From Candidatus Nomurabacteria bacterium (GTDB taxonomy: Bacteria; Patescibacteriota; Minisyncoccia; Phycocordibacterales; UBA9973), in contig JAHFNH010000001.1 in assembly GCA_023267435.1 (NCBI GenBank), positions 80,253-144,252 on the forward strand: a stretch of 64,000 nt of DNA, in the 5' to 3' direction. Shown here piece by piece: positions 4,512 through 64,000 of the stretch (positions are counted from its first letter, which is position 1; the number at the start of each line of letters is the position of its first letter). Under the pieces are notes generated by a model. That model was not told where the DNA came from and searched no databases. It worked only from the letters and a program-made list of their open reading frames with translations. The translations under genes and the position numbers were made by a program.

Positions 4512-4971
4512 ATTCAGATTCTATGACTGTCATATCCACTTTTAGTGGATCTTTTTTTCCATCAAATAAAATCACTCCCCAATCATTCAAATTAATTTTT
4601 TCTCTATCTATTATAATTTTTTCTCCACTATCTTTTGTAAATTCTATATATCTTTTAATAGTAAAAATAGTTTTAATATTTTGTTTATTTAAAAAATTCC
4701 ATGCCAATTTCTGATAATACTGGGAATCAGCGACATATTCTTCGAGCCCTTTTCCATTTTCCTTGTTCATTTTATTAACCTCTGTTTCATTGGGTCCCAA
4801 AAACACTCCAACAATACCGTTTATCTGCAATGTATCATCTAAAGAACTTTGATTTTGAGTTTGATTATTTATAATATTGTTTTTTATATTTGTATTTAAT
4901 AAATAACCGAATAAGATTATTAATAAAATTGGTATAATTATTTTTATTATTTTTTTTGATTCAAGTTTCAT
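4492..4971 (-). CDS. N-terminally membrane-anchored hypothetical protein, candidate immunity protein
   Basis: Start MKLESKKIIKIIIPILLIILFGYLL lies 4 nt after the RHS stop (TAA-TAAT-ATG). Signal/TM anchor followed by a soluble domain. Confidence 0.45.
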   Translation of the reverse strand: MKLESKKIIKIIIPILLIILFGYLLNTNIKNNIINNQTQNQSSLDDTLQINGIVGVFLGPNETEVNKMNKENGKGLEEYVADSQYYQKLAWNFLNKQNIKTIFTIKRYIEFTKDSGEKIIIDREKINLNDWGVILFDGKKDPLKVDMTVIESEYEKYFK

Positions 4972-4975
4972 ATTA

Positions 4976-12617: not shown

Positions 12618-14375
12618 TTAAACTTCTTCTGGTAAAAATCCTCCGGCTTGCATGTGCCACAAATTGGCATACTTTCCATTCTTTTTTAATAATTCCTCAT
12701 GCGTGCCGTCTTCAATAATCTTGCCATTTTCAAGAAAGATAATTCTATCCATGAATTGCAAAGTGGAAAGGCGGTGAGCTATTGCTATCACAGTTTTGTT
12801 TTGCATCAGAACTTTGAGTGCTGTTTGCACTTTTGCCTCACTGTCGCTATCGAGTGCGCTTGTGGCTTCATCGAGAATGAATAACGGACTGTTTTTTAGA
12901 ATTGCCCGAGCAATAGCAACTCTCTGTCTTTGCCCACCAGAAAGCTTCACTCCGCGCTCCCCGACAATGGTGTCATAACCTTTCGGCAATGTCTGAATAA
13001 ATTCATCTGCGTATGCCATTTTTGCCACTTCTATTATTTTTTCTCTCGGAACTTCCAGTGATCCATACTGAATATTTTCTGCGATGGTCGTATGGAAAAG
13101 AGAGGTATCTTGAGAAATAAAAGAAATATGTGAACGAAGAGATTCTTGAGTTATTTCCGAAATATCAAGGCTATTGATAATTATTTTTCCTTCTTGCGGA
13201 TCAAAAAATCTAAGCAGTAAATTTATCAAGGTTGTCTTCCCTACTCCGCTCAAGCCGACAATGCCAATCTTTTGTTTTGGTGGAATAATTAAAGAAAAAT
13301 GATCCAGAATATTTTTGTTTTCATTGTAAGTAAAACTGACATCCTGATAAATAACATCAACTGTGTCCCATTTGTTTACGATATGATTCTTGCCGTCATT
13401 CACGGAAGGTTCAACCAAAAGATCTTTAAGCACTTGGGAACATTCACTATAATTTCTAGTAAATTCTGAAAGGCTGTTTCCTGCATTGTAAACATAACTT
13501 ATTATCTTTAAACCGACGCCCGATATGAGCACCATCTCACCTATACTGATGAGTCCATGATTATATCCTCGAGCGGTTAGAATAATAAAAGCACATCCAA
13601 GCAAAACTGCCGAAACTCCCTGATACAGATAAACTAACACAAACCATTTACCCATGCTCAACTGTGAGTGATATTCTTTGTCGATTTGATTGTATATCCG
13701 CTGTTGATCAAAATCCCTGCTATACACTTTCACGGATGAAATATTAGTATAAATATCTACGAGTGCTCCGGTAGTGTTAGAACTGTCTTCCGCAAACATT
13801 TCTGCATATAAATTTATTTTTTTAATAAATGGACGAATTCCGACAATAAAGACAATCACCCACACAACAATCGCGAGACCAAGAGGTGGATACACGAGAG
13901 TCATTGTAACCATACTGATAACTACCAGCACGATGTTATCAATAAAATTATTCGTGACATTGTTTTTCATCGATTCAAGAGTATCTGCCGCGGTGCTTAT
14001 TTTGTGAGAAATTTGTCCAGCAAATCTATCGGCAAAATAACCAAAGGAAAGCTTCGAAGTATGAGCAAAAAGATATTTTTTAACATTTCGCCTAATACGA
14101 GAACTGACAGTGACTTCCAGCACATGGCCAATGCGATAAGAAAATTCATTGGTAAACAATGTAATAACAAGAAGTATTGTAAGTATTTTTACGTTGCCAT
14201 TGCCGGCATTTAAAGCATCAATAATCTTTCCTAAAAAATACGAAATGCCTATTGAGGTAAAAGTTCCTATGCCGTAAAACAAGCTGTTCAAAAGTATCCA
14301 TTTTATTTCTTTGGAATTAGTGGCTAGAAAAAACTTTAACGGATTATTATAATTTTCAGATTTTATTTTGTTCAT
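12618..14375 (-). CDS. ABC transporter permease/ATPase fusion (MsbA-like exporter)
   Basis: N-terminal 6-TM domain. Walker A GLSGVGKTT, signature LSGGQRQRVAIARA, Walker B ILDEATSALD. Confidence 0.85.
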   Translation of the reverse strand: MNKIKSENYNNPLKFFLATNSKEIKWILLNSLFYGIGTFTSIGISYFLGKIIDALNAGNGNVKILTILLVITLFTNEFSYRIGHVLEVTVSSRIRRNVKKYLFAHTSKLSFGYFADRFAGQISHKISTAADTLESMKNNVTNNFIDNIVLVVISMVTMTLVYPPLGLAIVVWVIVFIVGIRPFIKKINLYAEMFAEDSSNTTGALVDIYTNISSVKVYSRDFDQQRIYNQIDKEYHSQLSMGKWFVLVYLYQGVSAVLLGCAFIILTARGYNHGLISIGEMVLISGVGLKIISYVYNAGNSLSEFTRNYSECSQVLKDLLVEPSVNDGKNHIVNKWDTVDVIYQDVSFTYNENKNILDHFSLIIPPKQKIGIVGLSGVGKTTLINLLLRFFDPQEGKIIINSLDISEITQESLRSHISFISQDTSLFHTTIAENIQYGSLEVPREKIIEVAKMAYADEFIQTLPKGYDTIVGERGVKLSGGQRQRVAIARAILKNSPLFILDEATSALDSDSEAKVQTALKVLMQNKTVIAIAHRLSTLQFMDRIIFLENGKIIEDGTHEELLKKNGKYANLWHMQAGGFLPEEV

Positions 14376-15570
14376 TTTTTTTATTAAAATTAAAATAAAT
14401 TACGGCGAAAATAATGCTGATTACTGCTAATACAGAAAGAGTGATACGCATGCTTGATAAGTCTATCATGATACCTAAAACAATCGGTCCGGTGATTTCT
14501 GCTACTTGCGACACACCTTCAAATGCTCCGCTCAATGTGCCAATGTGTTCTTTCGGAACCGCAAGCGTTATTTCCCTATCAACTGATAGGCCTAACAATT
14601 GAAGACATGAACCAATCAAAAATACTAAAACCAACTGCGCTGGAAATATTGGAATAAAAGCAAGGAGAAATAAGAAAACTGTTAAAAATCCACATGTCCA
14701 AAATATTGTGTGTTTATATTTATCGGCAATTAAACCAAGAGGAGAACTAAATAAAGCCGGAAAAGCTGCAAAACCAGTTAGTAAAACAATTTGCCAAAGA
14801 CTTTGGTGTTGAGTAAAAGCATAAATAGGAATAAAAAACTCTCCGACTGTGGCTGTTATATCAATAAACAAATAAAATACTGCAAGCCAGCGTACGTTCC
14901 TGCCCCAAGAAATAATTGTTTTGAAAAAACTTCCATAAGAACCGAAAACTGAGAGACGAGCTTCTTTGGTAAGAGATGAAGCAGTCAGTCCATCCGGTAG
15001 TTTGCGCACGAAATAAATCGCAATGAGCGAAGTCGGAGCAATCATTAAAAATAAATAATGAATAGGAATATATCGTACAAGTATCGCACTAATGAAAATA
15101 GCCACGAGCCACCAGAAATTTGCCAATGAATCCATATATCCGAATGAAGTAGCAATATTTTCGGGCTTAGCGTGAGTGCGCACATAAGTAGCTCGTCCGA
15201 CACCATCGAGAGCATAAGCAACGCCGTTGATAATACGCGCACAAACAATGAAAGCAATAACCCCAAATACTCCAGCGGAAAAATAACTGATACTGATAAA
15301 TGGATACAACAATAATGAAACAATCAAAAGTTTCTTACTGGCGATATTGTCAGCGAGCCAAGACACCATTGGAAGTGAAAGCAAAAATACAACTCCATAA
15401 ATAGAACGCAATAAACCTGTCTCAGCATAAGTGTGAGCGAAAGAGAAAAGGAAAATAGGCAAAAATGCCTCAGCAAACCCCCAACCGAACCAGCGGATAG
15501 ATGTGGCGATAGATATAAGTCGCACTCCTTCTTCAATATTTGGATTAAAAAGTTTAAAAAATTTCTTCAT
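14356..15570 (-). CDS. MFS transporter
   Basis: About 12 TM segments, 404 aa. Confidence 0.7.
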   Translation of the reverse strand: MKKFFKLFNPNIEEGVRLISIATSIRWFGWGFAEAFLPIFLFSFAHTYAETGLLRSIYGVVFLLSLPMVSWLADNIASKKLLIVSLLLYPFISISYFSAGVFGVIAFIVCARIINGVAYALDGVGRATYVRTHAKPENIATSFGYMDSLANFWWLVAIFISAILVRYIPIHYLFLMIAPTSLIAIYFVRKLPDGLTASSLTKEARLSVFGSYGSFFKTIISWGRNVRWLAVFYLFIDITATVGEFFIPIYAFTQHQSLWQIVLLTGFAAFPALFSSPLGLIADKYKHTIFWTCGFLTVFLFLLAFIPIFPAQLVLVFLIGSCLQLLGLSVDREITLAVPKEHIGTLSGAFEGVSQVAEITGPIVLGIMIDLSSMRITLSVLAVISIIFAVIYFNFNKKNEQNKI

Positions 15571-15603
15571 ATAAATGATTACTCAACTTGGTCATTTTAG
15601 CAT

Positions 15604-15650
15604 ATTTGTGATATTGTTTGGTTAGAAATTCAATTGTTGTCTAACTAAAA
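15604..15650 (+). promoter_or_regulatory. Copy 1 of the shared promoter/operator module (TGTGATATTGTTTGGTTAGA..TCTAACT)
   Basis: -10-like TATTGT with a TTAGA-n13-TCTAA inverted repeat, 15 nt upstream of the ATG at 15661. Confidence 0.5.
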
Positions 15651-15660
15651 ACTTAATAAA

Positions 15661-16149
15661 ATGTTCACATACAAAGAAATCGAAAAATCCTGTAAACGAC
15701 TGGGAATCGATACAGAAAAAAGAGGTAAAAATCCTTTTGCTTTGGCTAAAACAATTTACGCCAAAGATAAATCCGCGAACCTAAAAGAGCTAGGGTTCCC
15801 TGAAAAGGAAAAGGTTCAAATTGAAAAAATTGGCAAACTGATTAATAATTTATTTTCCCAACTCACATTTCCACGTTCTTTTAATTTAACAACCGAAGAA
15901 GGTAAATTAGAAAAAGAGATGGATGATAAAATAAGTAAATTTTTACCAACCGCATGTCTTAGCCAAAAAGAGTGGCTTCAATCTGGAGCTCAAAAAGCTT
16001 CACTAAATGTTTCAGATTTTTCTTTGGATTCAGGTATTGTTTATGAACTAGATAAAGAAAAAGTTAAAGCTATGAAAGATATGCACGATAGTGGTCCACG
16101 ATATGTCCGTCTTAATAGAGGTGGTCACAATAGAAGATTTGGTGGATAA
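15661..16149 (+). CDS. Hypothetical protein
   Basis: 162 aa, preceded by a copy of the shared promoter module. Confidence 0.4.
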   Translation: MFTYKEIEKSCKRLGIDTEKRGKNPFALAKTIYAKDKSANLKELGFPEKEKVQIEKIGKLINNLFSQLTFPRSFNLTTEEGKLEKEMDDKISKFLPTACLSQKEWLQSGAQKASLNVSDFSLDSGIVYELDKEKVKAMKDMHDSGPRYVRLNRGGHNRRFGG

Positions 16150-29324: not shown

Positions 29325-30179
29325 TTATTTTCCAAAGAAATAATTTGTAATTCCTTTGGTGGTCAGACCAGCCATCGTTTTATAAGCTTGATGACGCGTG
29401 GAACTTTTGCGAAACATTTTTTCATAAATATAACCATATTCAACAAGAACTGAACTAGTATCAGGATTCAAGGTATCATTTGCCCCGAGGGCAATAAGTT
29501 TCTGATCCGGAACCATTCCACCTATTTCCTCTGGTAAAGTGCTTGATTGGTATTTTTTATGAAGCTGCGAAAAAATACTACCCGCTAATTTGGAGCTTTC
29601 TTTAGAATTAGCAAGTTGTCCGTCTGGCATATAAATAGTGAAACCTTTATATTCCCCTATTTTCCATTTTGTTGGGCGCGGATAATCATTGAAATGAAAA
29701 TGTATCACAGCATCCATTTTGTTTTCATCTACCCATTTATTTATTCCATACAATACGATAGACGTGTCTTTCGTTACTGAATTATGTATTACTGTTTCTT
29801 TTTGAACAAAACTACCAGTGGCAACTTTAGCCTGCATTTCTTGTTTAGCATTCTGCCTGAAAGAAATAATATCTTCTTTATGTTGTGAAAAATAATCGGC
29901 AAATTCTTTCGTGTAACCCGAACTGTCGCGAGTAATGTAAACCTCGAATCTTTTGTCTTTTTTTAGAAGATTATAAACCTGTGTAGCTAAAACTAGAGTC
30001 ATATTAGCCTCTTTTATATTTCCATATTGCGCTCCCCAAACTTCGTTGTCGTGACCTGGTACAAGCAATATTCTAATAGGTTCCACGGGTTTTGAAGTTG
30101 ATTTTGAAACAGGTGAAACTGCCTGTGTAAAAAATACAGGAATTAAAAAAGCTATCAGTATGAATAATATTTTCTTCAT
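29325..30179 (-). CDS. N-acetylmuramoyl-L-alanine amidase (Amidase_3-like) with N-terminal signal/TM
   Basis: ILLVPGHDNEVWGAQ, EVYITRD, MDAVIHFHFND and SSVLVEYGYI follow the Amidase_3 block pattern. Start taken at MKKILFILIAF. Confidence 0.55.
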   Translation of the reverse strand: MKKILFILIAFLIPVFFTQAVSPVSKSTSKPVEPIRILLVPGHDNEVWGAQYGNIKEANMTLVLATQVYNLLKKDKRFEVYITRDSSGYTKEFADYFSQHKEDIISFRQNAKQEMQAKVATGSFVQKETVIHNSVTKDTSIVLYGINKWVDENKMDAVIHFHFNDYPRPTKWKIGEYKGFTIYMPDGQLANSKESSKLAGSIFSQLHKKYQSSTLPEEIGGMVPDQKLIALGANDTLNPDTSSVLVEYGYIYEKMFRKSSTRHQAYKTMAGLTTKGITNYFFGK

Positions 30180-30196
30180 TGTAGTACAATAATACC

Positions 30197-31105
30197 ATGC
30201 CTGAGCTACCAGAAGTAGAGACGACAACCAGAGGCCTTCGCAAAGAAGTTGTCGGCCTTAAAATAAAAGACGTTTGGACGGATTTAAACACCAAAGACAA
30301 ACGTCAACATGATGCGGTTGCCAACCCGAAATATTTCACTATTTTTAAAAAAGAAGTTTTAGATAAAAAAATTATATCTGTCGAGAGGCAGGCTAAAAAT
30401 ATTTTAATAAATCTGACAGGAAACAAGACAATTTTAATCCATTTAAAAATGACTGGACACCTGCTTTATGGAAAGTATAAATATATCCTAAAAGAAAACA
30501 AATGGATTCCGGATGAAACCGGACCATTGCAAGACCCTTACAATAGATTTATACATTTTGTCTTTACCCTATCCGACAAAAAGTTTTTAGCTTTTTCAGA
30601 TGCGCGCAAATTCGGAAAAATAACTTTACTTGATACAAAAACAGCGCACGACTCAAGACACTTAAAAGATTTAGGGCCAGATCCACTGGCGAAAGATTTT
30701 AATTTAGAAAAATTCAAAGAAAGACTTTCGAAAAAGCAAAATGGAAAAATAAAAACAGTTTTAGTAGACCAAAGCGTGCTCTCCGGCATAGGAAATATTT
30801 ATTCTGACGAAATCCTTTGGTATGCTGGCATTCATCCGGAAAGAAAAGTACAAGATATAAAAGAAAATGAATTTAAAAAAATGTTTCAAGCAACAAAAGA
30901 AACTTTAACCAAAGGCATAAATTTCGGAGGAGATTCAATGTCGGACTACCGCAATATTTATGGCCTGCCTGGTAAATTTCAGCTTCATCACGAAGCGTAC
31001 CGACGGACTGGGGAAAAGTGTCGAAGGAAAGGTTGCAAAGGTGTTATAATGAGAAAAGTTATCAATAACCGGAGTGCACATTTTTGCTCCATTCATCAAA
31101 TTTAA
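30197..31105 (+). CDS. mutM: Formamidopyrimidine-DNA glycosylase
   Basis: MPELPEVETTTRGL N-terminus and C-terminal zinc finger CRRKGCKG..CSIHQ. Confidence 0.85.
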   Translation: MPELPEVETTTRGLRKEVVGLKIKDVWTDLNTKDKRQHDAVANPKYFTIFKKEVLDKKIISVERQAKNILINLTGNKTILIHLKMTGHLLYGKYKYILKENKWIPDETGPLQDPYNRFIHFVFTLSDKKFLAFSDARKFGKITLLDTKTAHDSRHLKDLGPDPLAKDFNLEKFKERLSKKQNGKIKTVLVDQSVLSGIGNIYSDEILWYAGIHPERKVQDIKENEFKKMFQATKETLTKGINFGGDSMSDYRNIYGLPGKFQLHHEAYRRTGEKCRRKGCKGVIMRKVINNRSAHFCSIHQI

Positions 31106-31267: not shown

Positions 31268-31374
31268 TATTCAGGATTTGTGATTTAGAAAACATTGCGC
31301 AGCGCGACGGCGCGAGCATAGCAAATTTTCAGCAGAAAATTATGTGTGTTTTATAAAATACAAATTCTGAATAT

Positions 31375-41392: not shown

Positions 41393-43096
41393 TTGGTAAT
41401 GGCATTATTTGATGAAGAAAAACAAAATAAACAGCTGGATGACTTGCACAAGCAAGAAGAAGAACAGTTGGTGGCAGTTTTAGCCGAATCAAAATATGGA
41501 TTGCCTTATGTGGATTTATCCCGTATTGGCGTAGACAATGAAGCACTCCGAGCTATAGACGAACAAGGTGCGCGTGAAATGAAAGTCGCACCCTTTAAAC
41601 TTTCCGGAAAAAATATTTTTATAGCCGTCCGCGCGCCCTCAGAAGAACTTTTAGGAAGTTTGAAAGAAGACATGGAAAGAAAAGATTTAATTCCTACTTT
41701 TTACATGGCGTCATTAGCCAGCTTAAATAAAGTTTGGGACAGATATAAGGAAATTTCACTAGCTGAAAGCTCAAAAATCGGAGGAATAGATATTTCCGGA
41801 GAAATTTTAGCAGAGACGGCAAAAGACATACAGAAAATGCAGGATATTGAAAAACTAATAACCGAAGCATTAGAAGGAAAACAAATCCATAAAATATCTC
41901 ACATTCTTGAAATAATACTCGCGGGTGCTATCGCAATCAAAGCTTCTGACATACACATCGAACCAGAAGAAGACCGCGGAAGACTCCGACTCAGGCTCGA
42001 TGGTGTTCTCCAAGATGTAATGTTTTTCGGAATGGATATCTATCACCTTCTCAACTCTCGTATTAAACTTCTTTCTGGAATGAAGCTGACTTCAAAAATA
42101 GCACAAGACGGACGCTTTAGTATTATGGAAAAAAACGAAGAAATAAGTATTCGTACTTCGCTTATTCCAGGTTCATACGGTGAATCAATCGTTATGCGTA
42201 TCTTGGATCCGAAATCCATTCAGCATGAATTAGAAGAAATGGGAATTGAACCATTCCTTTTTTCAATAATTCAGCAAGAAATAGCCAAGCCAAACGGTTT
42301 GATCTTGGTGACTGGTCCGACTGGTTCCGGAAAAACGACGACTCTTTATGCCTTTCTGCGCAAGATATATTCTTCGGAAATAAAGATAATCACCATTGAA
42401 GATCCTGTCGAATATCATTTAGCCGGTATAACTCAGACCCAAACAGATTCAAAAAAGGGATACACTTTCTTAGAAGGTTTACGCTCAGCTCTTCGCCAGG
42501 ACCCAGACGTGGTGATGGTCGGAGAAATCCGCGACGCGGAAACAGCCAAGATCGCAGTGGAATCTGCTTTGACGGGTCACTTGGTTTTCTCAACACTTCA
42601 CACCAACAATGCCGCTGGTGTTATTCCCCGTCTGATCGACCTTGAAGTTAATCCAAAAATAATGGTCTCAGCTTTATCTCTCTCAATAGCTCAGCGTCTC
42701 GTGCGTAAATTGTGCGAATTTTGCAAAAAAGAAAAAACTCCCACTGAAATGGAAGCTAAGAGTTTAAAACTTGTATTGGATAGTATAAAAGAAGAAGGAA
42801 AAGATTTATCGAAATATAATATAGATCCAAATGCGACATTTAAAATATTTGTAGCTGTCGGTTGTGAAAAATGTAACATGACAGGTTACCACGGCAGAGT
42901 TGGTATCTTTGAAGCTATTAAAACAGACGAAGCAATCGAAAAAATAATTCCATTAAATCCCAGCGAGCGCGAAATAAAAAAAGTTGCGCGAACACAAGGA
43001 ATACTTTCTATGCGCCAAGACGGCGTAGTGAAAATCTTAAATGGTGTTACTTCAATAGAAGAAGTGCAAAGTGTTGTTGATTTGAACGAAGAATAA
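41393..43096 (+). CDS. pilB: Type IV pilus/type II secretion assembly ATPase (PilB/GspE family)
   Basis: GSPII_E N-domain, Walker A GPTGSGKTTT, Asp/His boxes, tetracysteine CEKCNMTGYHGRVG. Confidence 0.85.
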   Translation: MVMALFDEEKQNKQLDDLHKQEEEQLVAVLAESKYGLPYVDLSRIGVDNEALRAIDEQGAREMKVAPFKLSGKNIFIAVRAPSEELLGSLKEDMERKDLIPTFYMASLASLNKVWDRYKEISLAESSKIGGIDISGEILAETAKDIQKMQDIEKLITEALEGKQIHKISHILEIILAGAIAIKASDIHIEPEEDRGRLRLRLDGVLQDVMFFGMDIYHLLNSRIKLLSGMKLTSKIAQDGRFSIMEKNEEISIRTSLIPGSYGESIVMRILDPKSIQHELEEMGIEPFLFSIIQQEIAKPNGLILVTGPTGSGKTTTLYAFLRKIYSSEIKIITIEDPVEYHLAGITQTQTDSKKGYTFLEGLRSALRQDPDVVMVGEIRDAETAKIAVESALTGHLVFSTLHTNNAAGVIPRLIDLEVNPKIMVSALSLSIAQRLVRKLCEFCKKEKTPTEMEAKSLKLVLDSIKEEGKDLSKYNIDPNATFKIFVAVGCEKCNMTGYHGRVGIFEAIKTDEAIEKIIPLNPSEREIKKVARTQGILSMRQDGVVKILNGVTSIEEVQSVVDLNEE

Positions 43097-55600: not shown

Positions 55601-57448
55601 TTATTTATCTTGGGCGACACATTGATCGTATAAACTCTTTCTTAGAGGAGCTTCTTTTTGTGTAAATGCATCATTGCCATTACAGCTTCCGGATGTATAC
55701 ATTCTAAAAGTTCCTTCTATACTTCCGCATAGTTTATAGACTTTAGTCATATATTCTGATGCTACTAAAATATCTGTTGTATTATTATTTAATAAGTCTT
55801 TTGGAAAAATGGTGGTTGTGTTGGGTACAGTTGTAACTGTAATACCTTTATTATAATTAGCTCCTTTAGTTGAACCACTTGGGAAAAATGTAACACCAAA
55901 AAGTCCGACTGAATGAGAAAATCTCCAGTCTAAACCAAGATCATTCGCACTTGAGTTTAATTGATCGTTGTTTAGGAAAGAATGGTCCGTAATTTTTGGA
56001 TCAGTGCTATTTCCTGCTGGAAAACTTGTGCCATCGAATTTTTTACCTGACGCAATAAAATCTTTTCTAGATGGAACACCTGCAGATGGAACATTTTCAT
56101 CATGGCCAATGAGCCCTGTGACACCTCTAGATTCTCTTTGAATTGCCACTTGCAATAGACAGTGTGGAATATTGTATTCTTGTTTTACTGCGATAGTTTT
56201 TATTTGATCATAAAAGCTTGTTCTTTGGAAAGCTGTATCTGTTCCTTGTGTTTGAGAGAGGTTGTAATTATTTCCAGATGAATCAAATACCACTGACGCA
56301 TCATTTATCCCACTCAAACTCACATCTAGTAGTTGAGGATTAATAGTATTCAATAAAACATAAGAACCAAGTGCAATCAAAAGTCCAAAGATAGCATTAC
56401 CAATCCTTTTTCTACCTTCTTCTTTAGAAGTCATTAATTCACTAGTCACATACTCTATTCCACCTATTACTATCATTACAAAAGATAATACAGCACATAA
56501 TCCGATGAATATTCGAATCATTGTATTAAAATACTTACCAAAAACATTACCTTGAGTAGAATCAATGATTGTTATAGTATTTCCTCCTCCTGTTCCCTCA
56601 CCTGCCTTTGTTGGTAGTGGAGCAAGGAGTTGATATGTAGTGTCTGAATTGGGTGGAGGTAGAGTAACGGGTGTTATTTCAACTTGTACTTTTTTAGGGC
56701 TGAAGGTTTTAACAGTAGTGCTACAAACTTTATCAAAAGTATTTTCAGCACAGGCTGTATAGTAATACATTGTGCCTTCCACCATATTCTGCCCCTTATA
56801 TTTTTCTATAGAATTTTTGAAATCTATAGAAGCTTGGTTGTAATTTTCATCTCCATATAAACTATTTAGAGTCTTATGTGTTGTTTCAGCATCTAAATTA
56901 GCACTACTCAATCCATATTTAAACCACACAGTCACAGGATTCTTATTATTCTGCACCGTTCCTACCAACGTAGCACCTAAACCAGTTAGATTAATTATAT
57001 CTTTTGTATATACAGTCGGTGGTCTGCTTTCACTGATGACATGAGTTCCACCACCACTCGTATCAAAATCATCTTGAAACAATCGAACAACTTTATTATC
57101 GGGATACACACCTTCTATTCTATAAGTAAATAAATGCATGGATGCGGTGTATGGAAAAAGGTTTGTTGAATATGCAAAAGTAAGAGGCGCTGTACTTGCT
57201 GGGTCATATGATATATCAAGTTGTTTTGAAAATAATGCTGTTGTGTGATCTTTCTGATATATATATAGATAATAATAAACTGGTACTGGTTCTGTTAAAG
57301 AATCAATAACAACATGACCATTAACAGAGAAGGTTGTTCCCGTTATATCTGTTTTGTCGACTATTACATGCGCAGCCGCCTTAGCCTGAGATGCAATAAA
57401 AAAAGCAGAGATGATGAGCGTTAAGAATATGTATTTTAGGGTTTTCAT
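55601..57448 (-). CDS. Secreted single-TM cell-wall hydrolase paralog A, with a C-terminal lysozyme/SLT-like domain (T4SS-associated, VirB1/CwlT-like)
   Basis: Signal peptide and internal TM (IRIFIGLCAVLSFVMIVIGGI). C-terminal VAIQRES... and ..EYMTKVYKLCG..RMYTSGS resemble SLT blocks. The central 758 bp is identical to paralog B. Confidence 0.5.
   Translation of the reverse strand: MKTLKYIFLTLIISAFFIASQAKAAAHVIVDKTDITGTTFSVNGHVVIDSLTEPVPVYYYLYIYQKDHTTALFSKQLDISYDPASTAPLTFAYSTNLFPYTASMHLFTYRIEGVYPDNKVVRLFQDDFDTSGGGTHVISESRPPTVYTKDIINLTGLGATLVGTVQNNKNPVTVWFKYGLSSANLDAETTHKTLNSLYGDENYNQASIDFKNSIEKYKGQNMVEGTMYYYTACAENTFDKVCSTTVKTFSPKKVQVEITPVTLPPPNSDTTYQLLAPLPTKAGEGTGGGNTITIIDSTQGNVFGKYFNTMIRIFIGLCAVLSFVMIVIGGIEYVTSELMTSKEEGRKRIGNAIFGLLIALGSYVLLNTINPQLLDVSLSGINDASVVFDSSGNNYNLSQTQGTDTAFQRTSFYDQIKTIAVKQEYNIPHCLLQVAIQRESRGVTGLIGHDENVPSAGVPSRKDFIASGKKFDGTSFPAGNSTDPKITDHSFLNNDQLNSSANDLGLDWRFSHSVGLFGVTFFPSGSTKGANYNKGITVTTVPNTTTIFPKDLLNNNTTDILVASEYMTKVYKLCGSIEGTFRMYTSGSCNGNDAFTQKEAPLRKSLYDQCVAQDK
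56295..57052. repeat. 758-bp perfect direct repeat, copy 1
   Basis: Base-for-base identical to 59448..60205 on visual alignment. Coding in both copies. Confidence 0.8.
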
Positions 57449-57485
57449 CTTTCTTGCTATGTACTTTTTTAAAACACAAATAGAA

Positions 57486-58844
57486 CTATTTTAAATTCAA
57501 CTTCCAAAGATAAGAATCTTTTTTGTTTACAAAAAATAAATAATTTTCACCATCATCCAAAGCAAGTTTAGTACCGTCCATATCTTCCCCGCCTACTACT
57601 GCAGCTGGATCAGAAATCATTGTTGCATTATTATTTGTCGCCTCTATTTTCCAAAGTTCATCTGAGAACGAAACTTGTCCTTGATACCAATCATCTGGAT
57701 ATTGTCCCTGGTCAACAAATTTTGGTACGGAACAATATACAATATCGCTATTTTTACCCCAAACGCATTTTTCTGGAAGAGTTTTTAAACCAAGAAGGCT
57801 AGAACTTTTAGTATCTACATTGTAAATATAAAGAGATAAGTTGTTGTTGTTATAAAGGATTAATTTCCCATTTGGACTGGTGAGGGTAGTGAGTCCGTTT
57901 ATACCACCGAGAATTTTATTAAAATCTTTTTTATCTGGGTTGATCGCATACATATAACCGGGAACATTAGCAGAAGGTTTAGTGGTAAGAGTGATCATTT
58001 TGTCGTTTGGCCATTGAGACAACCATTCTGTGAAAGGAGAATTAAATATTTGGGATTTTTTGTCACCCAATGAACCGGAAGTTATGCCTACTGTGCCATC
58101 TCCAACTTTAAAGAGATAGAATATTTTTGAAGCATCTGGAGAAACGCTCAAGTCTGAAATATTTTCCGGCAAGAAAGATCCTTTTATTTCAGTATCTGTC
58201 GTAGTGTCTCCGCCTAATATCTGTTTTGGCAAGCTACCAATAAAAGTTTCTATTGTTTTGTCGTCTGTTTTTAAATAGCGCATTACCACAGACTCTCCTT
58301 TAGCTCCAAAAAATGCTTCATGCACTATTGGAATAACTGTTGTGGTGAAATTACGCTCGTCTATTTTATCGGCAAGTGTTTGGTAAATATTTCCTGTTGC
58401 TCTGTCTACATATCTGACAGCCGGTATAAATTCAGTTGGAGGTGGTGTTGGTTTTACCGGAGCCGTTTTTCCTTTTTTGGTTGTTGTAGTAGTGGTTGCA
58501 GTATCAGGCGCGGCGGTGACAGTTATTGATGCTTCTTTAAATCTTTCTTGCATAAATACTCCAAAGCCTGCGATCGGCATAGTTGAAACCTTAACCATAT
58601 TTGCCTTAGATGCTTCTATTATTGGTGCTTTTTCAAATCCTGAAATATTGGCTGGGGCTGTCGGTTCAGCTGTTTTTGGAGCTGTACTTTTTAGAAATGG
58701 AAAAAATTGAGAGACAAAATTTATCCCCTGTGTGCCTGTTGTTGGGGCTGGTGTACTACTTTTGAAAAAATAGGAAAATCCAAAACTAATGGCTAGTATA
58801 GCTACAATGATAATTATTAAAAGTGTTAAATTTCTTTTTGTCAT
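57486..58844 (-). CDS. Membrane-anchored protein with a Thr/Pro-rich linker and a beta-propeller-like (TolB/PD40-like) domain
   Basis: N-terminal TM, TATTTTTKKGKTAPVKPTPPPT linker, repeated S.DG.K/L.Y.. strands. Confidence 0.4.
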   Translation of the reverse strand: MTKRNLTLLIIIIVAILAISFGFSYFFKSSTPAPTTGTQGINFVSQFFPFLKSTAPKTAEPTAPANISGFEKAPIIEASKANMVKVSTMPIAGFGVFMQERFKEASITVTAAPDTATTTTTTKKGKTAPVKPTPPPTEFIPAVRYVDRATGNIYQTLADKIDERNFTTTVIPIVHEAFFGAKGESVVMRYLKTDDKTIETFIGSLPKQILGGDTTTDTEIKGSFLPENISDLSVSPDASKIFYLFKVGDGTVGITSGSLGDKKSQIFNSPFTEWLSQWPNDKMITLTTKPSANVPGYMYAINPDKKDFNKILGGINGLTTLTSPNGKLILYNNNNLSLYIYNVDTKSSSLLGLKTLPEKCVWGKNSDIVYCSVPKFVDQGQYPDDWYQGQVSFSDELWKIEATNNNATMISDPAAVVGGEDMDGTKLALDDGENYLFFVNKKDSYLWKLNLK

Positions 58845-58852
58845 ATTTTTTT

Positions 58853-60601
58853 TTAAATTCTCTTAAAATGGTTTATTATTTTTCCATATTTACTAATGAT
58901 ATTAAAAATAGTGAATGCTTGTCCAGAGCTTCTGCCGTTGTGAGCTGCTGTTGATTCAGCAGCTTTTCCACCTCCAATATAAACAAAAGCATGACCTACA
59001 GATGTTCCAGGTGTGCCTGTGGTCCAACCAACAACATCTCCTGGTTTAAGTGCTTGTCCATTTAAAACAGTTTCACCATTTGCTTCAGTTTGCGTTGTGA
59101 TTGTTTCTAATCCTGTGCCTGTGCTGAATGCCATACCAGAACTTCCTCCAGGAGGATTTAATCCGGCGCATTCCAAAACATAATCAACAAAACCAGTGCA
59201 ATCAAGACATATTGTGCCAGTCGGACAAAAACTACTGCAGGCTATATTATTATCACACATTTTTGTGTCTGAAGGGTAAGGAGCTGGACCGCCCTTGCCG
59301 CCAAAACGATAAGTCACCTTGCCGTTTAGACTATTTACAATCTCAGCTATTCTAGCTGATCCACCAGCTTTGGGACAAACGATTCCTGTCGGAGGAGTAA
59401 AATTTAATGACACAGGCGAATTCGTGAATCCACCACTGTTAGTTATCGACGCATCATTTATCCCACTCAAACTCACATCTAGTAGTTGAGGATTAATAGT
59501 ATTCAATAAAACATAAGAACCAAGTGCAATCAAAAGTCCAAAGATAGCATTACCAATCCTTTTTCTACCTTCTTCTTTAGAAGTCATTAATTCACTAGTC
59601 ACATACTCTATTCCACCTATTACTATCATTACAAAAGATAATACAGCACATAATCCGATGAATATTCGAATCATTGTATTAAAATACTTACCAAAAACAT
59701 TACCTTGAGTAGAATCAATGATTGTTATAGTATTTCCTCCTCCTGTTCCCTCACCTGCCTTTGTTGGTAGTGGAGCAAGGAGTTGATATGTAGTGTCTGA
59801 ATTGGGTGGAGGTAGAGTAACGGGTGTTATTTCAACTTGTACTTTTTTAGGGCTGAAGGTTTTAACAGTAGTGCTACAAACTTTATCAAAAGTATTTTCA
59901 GCACAGGCTGTATAGTAATACATTGTGCCTTCCACCATATTCTGCCCCTTATATTTTTCTATAGAATTTTTGAAATCTATAGAAGCTTGGTTGTAATTTT
60001 CATCTCCATATAAACTATTTAGAGTCTTATGTGTTGTTTCAGCATCTAAATTAGCACTACTCAATCCATATTTAAACCACACAGTCACAGGATTCTTATT
60101 ATTCTGCACCGTTCCTACCAACGTAGCACCTAAACCAGTTAGATTAATTATATCTTTTGTATATACAGTCGGTGGTCTGCTTTCACTGATGACATGAGTT
60201 CCACCTGTGACACTTGTATCAAAATTATTACCCGGAGAGTTTAAGAAAACAGGAGGCGGAGTGTTGTTGTAGTAAACCCCTATTATTTTATAAGTAAATA
60301 AATGTTTTGTTGAAGTAAACTGGCTTATGTTTATTGAGTAATGAAACGTAAGAGTTTGAGGATCAATAGTAATCGGACTGCTTTGTATTAATGGTGCTGA
60401 TTTTCCTTGTTCATACAGAAAAAAAAAGTAATTCATTGGCATTTGCTGTATTGGGAAAGCCATAACCTTACCATCTATTGCTATAGTTGTGCCAGTTATG
60501 TCTTGTTTAGTTATGTCTATAGCGATTGTGGCTTTAGCCGGAGATGCAATAAAAAAAGCAGAGATGATGAGCGTTAAGAATATGTATTTTAGGTTTTTCA
60601 T
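58853..60601 (-). CDS. Secreted single-TM cell-wall hydrolase paralog B with a C-terminal NlpC/P60 endopeptidase domain
   Basis: LDCTGFVDYVLECAG (Cys nucleophile block) and GDVVGWTTG..GHAFVYIGG (His block). Shares the identical middle region and a near-identical signal peptide with paralog A. Confidence 0.6.
   Translation of the reverse strand: MKNLKYIFLTLIISAFFIASPAKATIAIDITKQDITGTTIAIDGKVMAFPIQQMPMNYFFFLYEQGKSAPLIQSSPITIDPQTLTFHYSINISQFTSTKHLFTYKIIGVYYNNTPPPVFLNSPGNNFDTSVTGGTHVISESRPPTVYTKDIINLTGLGATLVGTVQNNKNPVTVWFKYGLSSANLDAETTHKTLNSLYGDENYNQASIDFKNSIEKYKGQNMVEGTMYYYTACAENTFDKVCSTTVKTFSPKKVQVEITPVTLPPPNSDTTYQLLAPLPTKAGEGTGGGNTITIIDSTQGNVFGKYFNTMIRIFIGLCAVLSFVMIVIGGIEYVTSELMTSKEEGRKRIGNAIFGLLIALGSYVLLNTINPQLLDVSLSGINDASITNSGGFTNSPVSLNFTPPTGIVCPKAGGSARIAEIVNSLNGKVTYRFGGKGGPAPYPSDTKMCDNNIACSSFCPTGTICLDCTGFVDYVLECAGLNPPGGSSGMAFSTGTGLETITTQTEANGETVLNGQALKPGDVVGWTTGTPGTSVGHAFVYIGGGKAAESTAAHNGRSSGQAFTIFNIISKYGKIINHFKRI
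59448..60205. repeat. 758-bp perfect direct repeat, copy 2
   Basis: See copy 1. The offset is 3153 bp. Confidence 0.8.
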
Positions 60602-60602
60602 A

Positions 60603-61589
60603 CTAGAAATTCATATTGATTTCTTTCTCTAAACTCTGAAAAAGAGTTTGGATATTTTTGACAGAGATATTTATTTTAGCTGATCCGGATTTTCCACTTT
60701 CTGGTTTGATTGATAGGATATTTTTTGGATCTGGTGTTTGGAGTGGTGCTCCGTTTAAGGACCAGTCAAAAACAAGATTGTCTGAAGTTATATCTTTGGG
60801 TGAAAAGAAATATGGTTCGGCGACAAGTATCTCACCATTTGGATTTATTGTGAAAAAATTACCTAATGAATTTTCCCATTTTGTGCCGAGAGACAAGTCT
60901 TTTTCATAAAATATTATTTTTGGAATTGAAGTGCGTAGATTTATACTACCGGAAACACTTGTGTTGCCAGTGATATCTGATATAGCTACTTCAATGTTAT
61001 TACTCTTTTCTAAGTAGTTATTTTTGAAAATAAAATAACTCTTTCCCCATCCGGAAGAATTAGGCTGGCCATTCCCGTCTTTAGTCCAGGTATAAGACAG
61101 ATTACTGGCACTTGATTTTCCAATTGAAGTCATTAAGTTTGGCATTGCTACTACTTTGAAAGTTCCCTGGCTTGGAACCAATGCTTTTCCTTTGTAAAAA
61201 GGTGGAACATATGAATCTGGAGCTTCCCATAACATATCTACTTCTGTGGGTGTTATGGTTATTGTTTTTACAATATTTTGTCCATCCAATGTATTCATTC
61301 TCACACTCAAAACTGAAGATGAGCCCACATCACCTGTATTGAAAGAAAAAGTTTTTTTACCGATTCCTGAAAGGGTTTCTTTGTTGTTCATTGACCAAGA
61401 AATATTTGCTTTATCTAGATTAACTGCGAAGCTACTCAAGGTGGCATTTACGCTTTGATTGGGAGCTGGATAGGTCGGATTTATGGTTAAAGCGACATCG
61501 GTATTCTGCACTTGCGCAAAAGCTGTTCCATAAAAAGCACCGAATAAAATTACTGTAACGATTATTGATTTTTTAATCAAATTTATCAT
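60603..61589 (-). CDS. Secreted beta-rich hypothetical protein (T4SS cluster)
   Basis: Signal peptide IIVTVILFGAFYGTAFA. 328 aa. Confidence 0.4.
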   Translation of the reverse strand: MINLIKKSIIVTVILFGAFYGTAFAQVQNTDVALTINPTYPAPNQSVNATLSSFAVNLDKANISWSMNNKETLSGIGKKTFSFNTGDVGSSSVLSVRMNTLDGQNIVKTITITPTEVDMLWEAPDSYVPPFYKGKALVPSQGTFKVVAMPNLMTSIGKSSASNLSYTWTKDGNGQPNSSGWGKSYFIFKNNYLEKSNNIEVAISDITGNTSVSGSINLRTSIPKIIFYEKDLSLGTKWENSLGNFFTINPNGEILVAEPYFFSPKDITSDNLVFDWSLNGAPLQTPDPKNILSIKPESGKSGSAKINISVKNIQTLFQSLEKEINMNF

Positions 61590-61629
61590 AAGGTTACTTA
61601 TATTGTAACATTTTATAATTTTTTTATCC

Positions 61630-63471
61630 TTAGTGGGATATTTCTTTTTCTGCTTCCAAGTCTTGCTTAGCTTTTTTGATAGATAGGATTTGAGAAGGGT
61701 CGGAAGTAATGATCTGGTCTTCGGTATATGAGGAGATTATTTTAATCGCCACATGCTTTAAACCCGCAAAGAAGATACCTTCTCCTACTCCAGATTCTAG
61801 AAGTAGGTATTTTTCTTCGTCTGTCAGGTTGAATGTCTTTTGCAAGACATCGATAGTAGATGGAGATTGTTTTAAGAGAAGTTGAATAGAAGAGTTGGTA
61901 ACGATCGGTACGCCGTAGGGGGACTTCATAAAGTCAGCCGCGTCTTGAGTGATCGTCGAAAGTCCAAGATAATATTTTCTACCTCTTTTAGCAATAGAAT
62001 AAAGGAATGAAGCGGTGTCTTCTGATTTCATCATCCACCATGCCTCATCCACGACCAATAAGCGCTTTTTTAAATTTTTACGCACAGCATTCCAGATATA
62101 GTGTGTGACGATATACATCGCGATCGGCTTCAATTCATCTTCCATGTCGCGTACAGAAAACACAACGAACTTTTTATTGATATCAACATTCGAAGGTTTG
62201 TTTAAGAATGTAGACCAAGAACCTCGAGTGTATTTTATAAGTCTTTGCACCACTGAATCACTTCCGTCCATTCCAGAAAGAACCATTTCAAAATCTGAAA
62301 GAAGTGGAGGTTCGATATTTGAGAAGTCTGAGTCTGGTGTGATGTCTTTTATGGCGTAAGTTTCTGAAATAGCGCGGTCCACCATTGAATCTTCTTCAGG
62401 AGTTAGCCCACCCAACATCAATCGGAAAAGCCCGACGAGGTTGATGATATTTGAACGAAGAACATCCTCAGCAGTTTCGTCTTCACGCGGTATCGGCAAG
62501 TCAAAAGGATTGATATGGTGATCTGAAGAAAGAGAAATATTAAAATATCTTCCGCCGACAGCTTCAGCGAGGTACTCGTATTCCCTTTCCGGATCGATCA
62601 CAATGACATCTATGTCAAACATCAAAGATCTTAGGATTTCCAATTTTGTCGCATAAGATTTTCCTGAACCAGACTTTGCGAAAGTTACAGAGTTATAATT
62701 TTCAAGCGAGAAACGATCAAAGATAACCAAACTAGAATTGTGTCTGTTTACGCCATAAAGTATTCCTTTGTCTGAAGTTAAGTCGAAAGAAACGAATGGA
62801 AAAATACTGGAAAGCGGTTCGGAATTTAATTTCTGGTGGACCGACAAGATATCATTTCCGATCGGAATAACGCTTTTAAATCCATCGTCCTGCTGGAAAA
62901 GAGCCGGCTTAATATAAATAAGTTTTGATTCCAGCATTGATTTGATTTCATTTTCAACTTTAAAGAGCTCTAATTCGTTGTCGGCATAAACTGTAATATA
63001 AACTCCAACATCAAACATTTTTTCCTGTGCTTGCATCAAATTATCGCGAAGACCCTCCAAATCTTGAAAGGCTGTGTCGAGCATTGGGTCGCGCACCATA
63101 CCTTTCGATTCTCGAGCAGAAATCTGACTTTGCACTTCTGCTACTTTTTTCTGGAATTGCCTCAAAGCGAGCGAAGTATCTATCGGATGGATAAAAATAG
63201 AAACATCAAATATTTTATCCAAATTTATGATGGGTGAAAACCAATTGTCTGTCAGAAATCTCGGATAAGATATTATAAAAAATGTTCGAGCAATTTTATC
63301 TCCTAAATTTATAGATTTAGGCTCTATTTTTAAGGCTGACGGCGCGATGACATCTTGGAGTTCTAGGGTCGCTGACTCGTAAATTTCTTCAGGAAGAACA
63401 GCTAAAACAGAAGCACTAGCGGTGCTTTCTGAAGTTTTCTTTTTTCCGAATAATGTATCAAAAAAAGCCAT
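61630..63471 (-). CDS. VirB4-family type IV secretion/conjugation ATPase (Gram-positive TcpF/PrgJ/ConE-like)
   Basis: Walker A AKSGSGKSYATK and Walker B with the family-typical LLVVDEAWWMM. 613 aa. Confidence 0.65.
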   Translation of the reverse strand: MAFFDTLFGKKKTSESTASASVLAVLPEEIYESATLELQDVIAPSALKIEPKSINLGDKIARTFFIISYPRFLTDNWFSPIINLDKIFDVSIFIHPIDTSLALRQFQKKVAEVQSQISARESKGMVRDPMLDTAFQDLEGLRDNLMQAQEKMFDVGVYITVYADNELELFKVENEIKSMLESKLIYIKPALFQQDDGFKSVIPIGNDILSVHQKLNSEPLSSIFPFVSFDLTSDKGILYGVNRHNSSLVIFDRFSLENYNSVTFAKSGSGKSYATKLEILRSLMFDIDVIVIDPEREYEYLAEAVGGRYFNISLSSDHHINPFDLPIPREDETAEDVLRSNIINLVGLFRLMLGGLTPEEDSMVDRAISETYAIKDITPDSDFSNIEPPLLSDFEMVLSGMDGSDSVVQRLIKYTRGSWSTFLNKPSNVDINKKFVVFSVRDMEDELKPIAMYIVTHYIWNAVRKNLKKRLLVVDEAWWMMKSEDTASFLYSIAKRGRKYYLGLSTITQDAADFMKSPYGVPIVTNSSIQLLLKQSPSTIDVLQKTFNLTDEEKYLLLESGVGEGIFFAGLKHVAIKIISSYTEDQIITSDPSQILSIKKAKQDLEAEKEISH

Positions 63472-63522
63472 TCTTATTAGTTTATTATAACTTAAAAATC
63501 AAAAAGCTGAAAGCTAAAATCA

Positions 63523-63927
63523 TTAGTTAGTTTTTTCCAGCTCTATTTTACCCTCTATTTCTCCGGGGTTGAACACTTTATAGAAGACTTCCACGACTTC
63601 TTCTGTTCCCAATTGGACGGATTTTATACCGCAACGGGAAAGCCCTTGCTGGATGACACTGACTCTCTGCTCCAACTGAGATCTTTTTTCTTCAAAATCA
63701 GTCTGTTCTGCAGCTTTTATTTCCTCTCTGCTTCTTTTTGAAAAAAATCCTTTAAATATCCCCGAGTCTGTTTTAAAAGATACGGGAGTGTAAGGCACGA
63801 CCACAAAAAAACTTTTAGTCATTATACTGACTGATTCAGTGAAGTTTTTAATAAAGTCTATATACTCTCTTGTTTGAAGTTTGAGTAAGGGTTCTGTCTG
63901 CACTTTCATTCTGTTTTCTAAAAGCAA
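63523..63927 (-). CDS. Hypothetical protein upstream of the VirB4-like gene
   Basis: 134 aa. The operon on the minus strand presumably continues beyond the window end. Confidence 0.35.
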   Translation of the reverse strand: MLLENRMKVQTEPLLKLQTREYIDFIKNFTESVSIMTKSFFVVVPYTPVSFKTDSGIFKGFFSKRSREEIKAAEQTDFEEKRSQLEQRVSVIQQGLSRCGIKSVQLGTEEVVEVFYKVFNPGEIEGKIELEKTN

Positions 63928-64000
63928 AAGATAAGGCCTGATGTCGAGCTTTCTGGATTGGACGGATATTTGAATAGAAAAATCTATAGTATTTAAAAAT

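Follow-up and report, generated by a model that had tools for sequence, protein, structure and literature searches.

The closest described relatives of the system analyzed here are type IV secretion systems (T4SSs) of Patescibacteria. Wang et al. (2023) reported an atypical T4SS with essential pilins that is needed for the epibiotic growth of S. epibionticum (PMC10633639), and both the T4SS and the pilins are recorded as essential for this growth (PMC10633639; PMC12857230). In a phylum-wide survey, Quinonero-Coronel et al. (2025) described a clade of MPF_FATA-related VirB4 proteins together with PrgI, VirB2-like pilins, and a location in proximity to dnaA (PMC12102498). TrsD was the most abundant component in this survey, a separate TrsD-type N-terminal domain was reported for the phylum, the copies within pilin arrays were at most 54% identical, and the data set contained only 109 relaxases, 15 of them near virB4 (PMC12102498). 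In ML1, peptidase and lysozyme homologues are encoded just downstream of virB4 (PMC12102498). The function of the T4SS of Patescibacteria has been called 'completely unknown', yet it is essential for epibiotic growth (PMC11665869). Here, we analyzed a 64,000 nt stretch of DNA from a Candidatus Nomurabacteria bacterium (contig JAHFNH010000001.1, positions 80,253 to 144,252; termed the window in the following), which contains part of a T4SS operon at positions 55601-64000. Two genes of this operon, g4 and g6, are likely to be two copies of its VirB2-like 'pilin' gene, and each copy carries a different C-terminal domain, or head, which is predicted to be extracytoplasmic and to act on peptidoglycan.

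Two genes with a shared core and different heads

The region 55601-64000 consists of six minus-strand genes, all in the same orientation and separated by gaps of 1-51 nt, and the gene order along the operon is the TrsD-like gene, virB4, g3, g4, g5, and g6. The g4 gene (58853..60601, minus strand) encodes a protein of 582 aa with a signal peptide, a variable, lineage-specific ectodomain (aa 21-132), a core (aa 133-385), and an NlpC/P60 head. The g6 gene (55601..57448, minus strand) encodes a protein of 615 aa with a signal peptide, a variable ectodomain, the same core with its hairpin, and a head that appears to be a divergent SLT-type domain. The shared core contains a YxLLAPLP motif and a hairpin of the VirB2/T4SS_pilin type. 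A first-pass annotation, made from the sequence alone, had described both products as proteins with a single transmembrane (TM) segment. Hydropathy analysis, in contrast, revealed three hydrophobic segments in each protein, namely, besides the signal peptide, a pair of TM helices (aa 306-336 and aa 349-370), which are joined by a short charged loop and form the T4SS_pilin-type hairpin. In g4, TM1 and TM2 are encoded at 59609-59674 and 59495-59548, the NPQLL motif at 59480-59494, and the NlpC/P60 head at 58949-59311. The corresponding positions in g6 are 56456-56521 (TM1), 56342-56395 (TM2), 56327-56341 (NPQLL), and 55604-56293 (SLT-type head). The two proteins are identical from aa 133 to aa 385 and about 40% identical from aa 21 to aa 132, and their heads are unrelated.

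The hairpin was compared with its counterparts in related loci. A VirB4 scan of species-representative genomes yielded 590 confirmed relatives, and the best 80 (76-93% identical), which are Paceibacteria/'Nomurabacteria'-type metagenome-assembled genomes, were used for the comparison. The window hairpin is 35-71% identical to the orthologous hairpins. In these loci, the slot of the hairpin gene lies downstream of virB4, between g3 and g5, and 61 of 75 slot proteins matched the Pfam family T4SS_pilin (PF18895) at E<=1e-3. Several of these matches were above the gathering cutoff (33.9 bits for L001, 34.8 bits for L031, and 33.9 bits for L073). The TrbC score was 25.1, which is below the cutoff of 27.9. 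A hidden Markov model (HMM) of the hairpin matched g4 at 4e-41; it was built from both window proteins and the orthologues and is therefore not independent.

The NlpC/P60 domain that had been assigned to the C-terminus of the 582-aa protein was confirmed by the proposed NLPC_P60 HMM check, because PF00877 matched g4 with 30.2 bits at a cutoff of 23. The catalytic residues Cys467, within DC(T/S), and His537, within GH, were invariant in 13 orthologues. For the 615-aa protein, a lysozyme/SLT-like C-terminus had been proposed, and here the support came from homologues, but not from a direct Pfam SLT match of the protein itself. Ten homologues of g6 (P0001-P0010) were 35-57% identical, and several of them carried PF18895 and/or PF01464. 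Pfam SLT was matched by 4 of 11 aligned members of the g6 family, the best at 2e-9. The glutamate of QRES (56129-56140), which represents the E-S motif, was invariant in the family, and hhalign placed QRES on the E-S catalytic motif of the clear SLT head of L051. The profile of the g6 family did not match any solved structure below E 0.07. With moderate confidence, the head of g6 is predicted to be a divergent lytic transglycosylase of the SLT type.

The identity of 253 aa (aa 133-385) between g4 and g6 is the product of a direct repeat of 758 bp, which had been overlooked before. The two copies are 100% identical and form the core of g6 (56295..57052) and the core of g4 (59448..60205). A second, short repeat of 71 nt with 96% identity covers the signal peptides (57378-57448 and 60531-60601). 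Two or three scaffold copies were also present in L072, L075, and L078, with repeats that were 93-100% identical between at least two copies. In L075, the order is as in the window, with a hairpin-3D gene, g5, and a hairpin-P60 gene. The repeat between the paralogs extends past the NPxL codons, which close the hairpin, by 45 nt (window), 47 nt (L075), and 55 nt (L072), corresponding to 15-18 residues. On the basis of these repeat ends, the shared position indicates a common junction for head exchange. The identical core is most readily accounted for by gene conversion or by a recent duplication with subsequent head replacement. In L078, one slot open reading frame (ORF; 13885-15303) contains two tandem T4SS_pilin hairpins, and a second hairpin gene is located at 15358-16143; at the DNA level, identity among the three hairpin copies is 75-100%.

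Head polymorphism among related loci

The synteny of the TrsD-like gene, virB4, g3, the hairpin gene, and g5 was retained in nearly all 80 loci, as determined by tblastn. Exactly one hairpin gene was detected with the hairpin HMM in 73 of the 76 loci that contained the region, usually with a single head. With this HMM, no free-standing pilin was found, either in the window or within about 20 kb of the 80 related loci. Three slot proteins of 170-199 aa are head-less and consist of a signal peptide, the hairpin, and a short tail of at most 66 aa (L023, 4798-5346; L028, 3669-4265; L066, 6743-7252).

The sequences following the hairpin formed at least 17 head clusters. Pfam heads were assigned in the 75 slot proteins as follows: NlpC/P60 in 14, VanY in nine, YkuD in five, Peptidase_M15_4 in three, SLT_2 in two, and SLT and 3D in one each. 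Across the related loci, the head repertoire comprises at least eight Pfam families plus unassigned types. A further head cluster with 13 members has the pattern HxxxxxxD...HxH, which is suggestive of an M15-like fold. About nine head classes were interspersed among the 25 loci with a VirB4 88-93% identical to that of the window. The closest relative, L001, has a YkuD head and no second scaffold copy, and jag, yidC, and rnpA follow directly after its module. The N-terminal ectodomain of the window proteins was not matched in any of the 80 loci, and therefore this end of the scaffold is variable as well. The ectodomains of orthologues contain the adhesin-type domains TIG, Big_1, and CBM_10. At the level of sequence comparison, the head was shown to be an exchangeable cassette on a conserved scaffold. 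A variable immunity gene was not found after the slot gene; the conserved g5 begins 8 nt past g4, and the spacing is similar in relatives. Orphan head cassettes were also not found at the loci.

In a wider search, the 124-aa hairpin was compared by phmmer with 1.84 billion cluster representatives, and 13,128 of these matched at E<=1e-3. Among the best 150 matches, 112 had at least 100 aa past NPxL, with a median of 172. Pfam analysis of 122 hairpin matches yielded the same head families and, in addition, Amidase_2 and CHAP. In the published Table S3, such a protein is named 'VirB2', and the Pfam family of its cluster is PF00877 (PMC12102498). The fusion of a pilin with a hydrolase is not discussed in the main text of the searchable papers, including PMC12102498. 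The present analysis thus corrects an automated annotation, in which different profiles name one and the same protein VirB2 or NlpC/P60.

Components of the operon and chromosomal setting

The virB4 gene (61630..63471, minus strand) encodes a T4SS ATPase of 613 aa, and the earlier recognition of a VirB4-family ATPase with the motifs GSGKS and DEAW was correct. The protein matched NCBIfam NF045971 ('VirB4-like conjugal transfer ATPase, CD1110 family') with 371.4 bits (cutoff 325) and Pfam P-loop_TraG (PF19044) with 83.7 bits (cutoff 25.8, E 1.4e-23), and AAA_10, which had been suggested as a check, was matched as well. Walker A is located at aa 268 (62656-62670) and Walker B at aa 475 (62038-62049). 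The match to NF045971 spans profile positions 183-733 of 752, and because it begins only at position 183, the ATPase is a VirB4 without the N-terminal domain. This domain is encoded apart, in the upstream TrsD/TraC-like gene. Of this gene, a homologue of stand-alone VirB4 N-terminal domains, the window contains the 3' part of about 158 codons (63523..64000, minus strand). The reading frame runs without interruption from 63999 to its stop codon at 63523, in accordance with the view that the operon leaves the window at its edge. The fragment gave weak matches to VirB4 N-terminal regions (NCBIfam, 0.01-0.036) and to TraC_F_IV. On an ENA contig the gene is complete and encodes a TraC-like protein (PF26593) of 215 aa, which is 85% identical to the 214-aa orthologue of L001. 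The 'small upstream protein' of the first-pass annotation is therefore not small; its size of 134 aa was a truncation artefact, and the window holds the C-terminal ~158 aa of the 215-aa protein.

A TrsD homologue adjoins virB4 in 76 of the 80 related loci. A PrgI/VirB3 gene (PF12666, 147 aa) is located two genes upstream on the source contig, outside the window, and the PrgI orthologue of L009 matched at 1.6e-9. The suggested search for further T4SS components nearby thus yielded the adjacent TrsD-like gene and PrgI/VirB3. L001 and L009 also encode a large upstream protein of 900-950 aa with at least five hydrophobic segments, and the upstream proteins of these two loci did not match any Pfam family except PrgI. 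Based on its topology, our guess is that the large polytopic protein could be VirB6-like.

The g3 gene (60603..61589, minus strand) encodes a conserved protein of 328 aa with an N-terminal signal-type hydrophobic segment as its only hydrophobic segment, in agreement with its earlier description as a secreted protein. It had no Pfam, NCBIfam, or PDB profile match, and in about 73 of the 80 related loci its gene comes immediately after virB4. The g5 gene (57486..58844, minus strand) encodes a protein of 452 aa with an N-terminal TM anchor, a disordered Thr/Pro-rich linker, and a seven-bladed beta-propeller. An AlphaFold 2 (AF2) model built from 37 homologues had a predicted local distance difference test (pLDDT) value of 70.8 and contained a TM helix at aa 3-26 and an all-beta region at aa 137-450. 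Foldseek yielded 1293 PDB matches at E<=1e-3, the best of which were seven-bladed WD40/RACK1 propellers (3e-10), so that model and search bear out the anchored propeller that had been predicted. By sequence profile, neither g5 nor g3 matched a solved structure below E 0.07. Two of 1509 homologues of g5 (P0122 and P0124) carry PG_binding_1 (PF01471), which hints at contact with peptidoglycan and would fit a wall-associated role. The g5 gene follows the slot gene in 67 related loci.

The neighbours of the module are jag, yidC, yidD, rnpA, dnaA, and dnaN, with dnaA and dnaN at a distance of 2-5 kb, and the GC content is uniform, without an anomaly. Relaxase, integrase, and type IV coupling protein families were not matched by any of the ORFs of at least 399 aa in the 64-kb window or by 10 further ORFs of 181-336 aa, which confirms the reported lack of a relaxase and an integrase. 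On the source contig, the 10 kb upstream of the module contain only PrgI, TrsD, and unannotated large proteins. The module is a chromosomal, Gram-positive-type (MPF_FATA-related) T4SS, and the region is likely to represent the distal half of the type IV secretion operon that Patescibacteria typically carry near the replication origin. The core-gene neighbours and the lack of relaxase and integrase genes support the earlier suggestion that the T4SS is chromosomal and probably has a use other than plasmid transfer.

Several further features of the window were noted. A PilB-type T2SSE ATPase (41393-43096, plus strand; 377 bits) is encoded about 12 kb from the T4SS operon, and hence genes for a type IV pilus and for the T4SS are both found near the replication origin. 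A stand-alone Amidase_3 protein (29325-30227, minus strand), an N-acetylmuramoyl-L-alanine amidase, is a candidate housekeeping autolysin that is separate from the T4SS heads. A 91-nt intergenic element at 31275-31365 is 89% identical to positions 10304-10394 of L001, which lie between g5 and jag. No Rfam family matched this element. Its fold is a long closed stem that encloses two inner hairpins (z = -5.5), one stem contains a compensatory change from GCGC to GGCC, and the element may be an undescribed small RNA. At 4976-11053 (minus strand), a 2025-aa SpvB/FG-GAP/RHS-repeat protein is encoded, which has a Peptidase_M15_4 C-terminus (aa 1935-2004) after a DPSG motif. Its domains suggest an RHS polymorphic toxin whose head targets the cell wall, and the two small ORFs downstream of it (4492-5037 and 3714-4511), which belong to no family, could be immunity genes. 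Its M15_4 head had no BLASTP similarity to the pilin-fused heads at E<=0.01.

Possible roles and comparison with known systems

We propose, with a probability of roughly 0.7, that the VirB2-like hairpin docks swappable peptidoglycan-cutting heads at the T4SS, with both the enzyme activities and the docking being predicted from sequence. The hairpin would attach the enzyme to the membrane complex of the T4SS, as VirB2 docks in other systems, and the cutting of glycan strands and peptide stems would be concentrated where the machine crosses the cell wall. The heads would thereby fulfil the function that membrane-anchored hydrolases of the VirB1 type (CwlT, PrgK, TraG) have in Gram-positive conjugation. 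Their target could be the cell's own wall, the wall of a host, or both. The rapid turnover of heads and ectodomains and the M15_4-headed RHS toxin in the window favour a host-facing role, whereas the absent immunity gene and the tethering beside the own wall favour self-remodelling. In a large Paceibacteria clade, the only recognisable VirB2-like element of the operon is fused to peptidoglycan-active enzymes that are swapped between close relatives, and this points to breaching or remodelling of the wall as a core activity of the T4SS. The isolated heads, the hairpin-only variants of L023, L028, and L066, and the natural two-head genomes provide testable reagents.

Several results weigh against this proposal. 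The hairpins of g4 and g6 themselves scored 15.0 and 16.4 bits, respectively, against PF18895, below the cutoff of 26.6, and the profile of the hairpin family did not match any VirB2 or pilin among the solved structures by sequence. Therefore, the term 'VirB2-like' rests on Pfam families and orthology, and the weak matches of the window proteins are supported by the T4SS_pilin matches of the orthologues at the same slot. The C-terminus of g6 had no direct Pfam match and no PDB sequence match at E<=10, the AF2 model of its head was of low confidence (pLDDT 64.6), and the best Foldseek matches, all of which were lysozyme-like, were weak and not significant (E>=0.39), so that the SLT assignment is not based on them. 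It appears sterically doubtful that proteins with an ectodomain of about 285 aa and a head of about 200-230 aa could polymerise to form a filament of the VirB2 type. Heads such as VanY and YkuD (the latter with an L,D-transpeptidase fold) do not belong to the classic enzymes of wall opening, and the family may serve the remodelling of peptidoglycan instead. Lastly, the 80 loci are the closest VirB4 relatives and sample one clade.

The first-pass annotation had explained the two heads differently, namely as the muramidase and the endopeptidase of a CwlT/Orf14-type bifunctional hydrolase that became separated into two genes. Both activities that are fused in CwlT-type proteins indeed occur here beside an MPF_FATA-type VirB4, but gene fission would not produce two proteins with a paralogous N-terminus and an identical core of 253 aa. 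Moreover, relatives have one gene with one head from many families (73 of 76 loci with a single gene), the anchor is a two-helix pilin hairpin, the NCBIfam families of conjugation hydrolases were matched by neither g4 nor g6, and a fused bifunctional ancestor was not seen in the 80 loci. In S. epibionticum, lysozyme and Cys-protease domains are still fused in a protein without a recorded PF18895 match, so that the fused and unfused forms represent different lineages and architectures. Because the single-head scaffold gene is the rule in relatives, the two-gene state is attributed to duplication with head replacement or to gene conversion, and fission is very improbable. The two-copy arrangement could also be an assembly artefact, i.e. 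a collapsed or chimeric repeat from mixed strains. A perfect repeat of 758 bp is indeed hard for short-read assemblers, and public short-read assemblies break at it: ENA contigs of the same sample end inside it to either side of g5 as well as in g4. However, unique junctions flank both copies in independent assemblies; Logan contig L081 (SRR14366756) equals window positions 57411-59477 at 100% and ends 30 nt within the repeat. Because the junctions of g3 with the N-terminus of g4, of the P60 head with g5 and the N-terminus of g6, and of the SLT head with jag are all unique, only the linear order of the window is possible. The design also recurs in three species from other projects (L072, L075, L078), in two of which the repeat was measured and ends at the same junction, and an artefact was thus rejected as extremely improbable. 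An integrated conjugative element with relaxase and integrase genes beyond the window edge was rejected as well. It would be compatible with the operon leaving the window and with the relationship of VirB4 to the CD1110 ATPases of such elements, but the synteny with jag, yidC, and rnpA in the closest relative and with dnaA and dnaN across the class, the uniform GC content, the lack of mobility genes in the window, the gene content of the upstream 10 kb on the source contig, and the rarity of relaxases near virB4 in the phylum leave it hardly any probability.

Other alternatives concern the role of the hairpin and the heads. The hairpin might be a generic membrane anchor for housekeeping autolysins of growth or division, with an incidental adjacency to virB4. 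The very large hairpin family, many of whose 13,128 cluster representatives possibly lie outside T4SS loci, and the YkuD and VanY heads, which are typical of wall maturation, would be in line with this idea. Yet the slot between g3 and g5 is occupied in about 73 of 76 loci despite the turnover of heads, the spacing of 1-40 nt is operon-like, S. epibionticum has PF18895 pilins that are essential and linked to its T4SS, and the published data set names the slot protein VirB2; we regard a generic anchor as quite unlikely. More weight, while still being doubtful, has a host-directed 'drill', in which VirB4 would pull the hairpin out of the membrane and extrude it, so that a pilus-like structure would display the heads on its surface or at its tip and these would cut the wall of the host. 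As a corollary, the head type would follow the peptidoglycan chemistry of the host, and two heads would combine glycan and peptide cutting. The set of heads is reminiscent of effectors with which interbacterial systems target peptidoglycan. Quick turnover of head classes among species with about 90% identical VirB4 proteins, as for a host-facing part, the hypervariable ectodomains with adhesin-type domains in orthologues, the RHS toxin with its M15_4 peptidoglycan-peptidase head, and the essentiality of T4SS and pilins for epibiotic growth of S. epibionticum would agree with a drill. On the other hand, a variable immunity gene is absent at the tightly spaced g4-g5 junction and in relatives, the enzymes are tethered beside the cell's own wall, bulky fusions speak against assembly of a filament, and the organism has no known host. 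In addition, the VirB1 homologues of Gram-positive bacteria show a similar diversity, and their substrate is the wall of the donor itself (PMC12857230). As a speculative and rather unlikely variant, the pilin could be a delivery scaffold and not a filament subunit, so that the hairpin would be extracted by VirB4 and TrsD, and the head, along with a variable adhesin-like ectodomain, would be presented at the contact site to open the host wall. If this were true, the head type would be fitted to the chemistry of the host wall via cassette exchange at the fixed post-NPxL junction, the genome analyzed here would use a glycan cutter and a peptide cutter together, with copies kept identical by gene conversion, and a first concrete mechanism for the essentiality of the T4SS in episymbiotic Patescibacteria would be at hand.

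The proposal of hairpin-docked heads can be set against several known systems. Canonical pilins are small and have no catalytic domain. Like VirB2/TrbC pilins, the window-type proteins have a signal peptide, two hydrophobic helices, and a short charged loop, and T4SS_pilin and, more weakly, TrbC match the orthologues; in contrast to these pilins, their hairpin is preceded by up to ~500 aa and followed by 150-340 aa. With CwlT (ICEBs1), Orf14 (Tn916), PrgK (pCF10), and TraG (pIP501) they share extracytoplasmic, membrane-tethered SLT/muramidase and NlpC/P60/CHAP-type heads that are encoded in a virB4 operon (PMC12857230). However, CwlT-type proteins carry several enzymatic domains per anchored protein, whereas in the window there is one head per protein. 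The anchor is also different, being a two-helix pilin hairpin that follows a cleavable signal peptide and an ectodomain, and the head family differs by species. Polymorphic toxins (Rhs, CDI, T6SS Tae/Tge-type) similarly combine a conserved module with swappable C-terminal heads at one junction, and their heads target peptidoglycan, but the window genes differ from them by the lack of an adjacent variable immunity gene and of orphan head cassettes and by a scaffold that is a pilin hairpin in a core chromosomal operon.

The greatest likeness is to the genes SEML1_0006-0019 of S. epibionticum ML1, with which the locus shares an MPF_FATA-related VirB4, a separate TrsD-like protein, PrgI/VirB3, and a large polytopic protein. 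PF18895 domains, hydrolases directly downstream of virB4, the lack of a relaxase, and the proximity to dnaA, dnaN, and rnpA are further features in common with ML1 and the phylum survey. Unlike in the window, where hairpin and head are parts of one protein, ML1 has six small free-standing pilin genes and separate large hydrolases, one of which, SEML1_0006, combines two lysozyme-like domains with a Cys protease and is without a recorded PF18895 match. The scaffold copies of the window are 100% identical over 253 aa, compared with at most 54% in published pilin arrays. Because the module matches the origin-proximal T4SS of Patescibacteria published in 2023-2025, the T4SS itself is already known, and it is the fusion of a pilin hairpin with hydrolases, with polymorphic heads, that replaces the claim of a split hydrolase.

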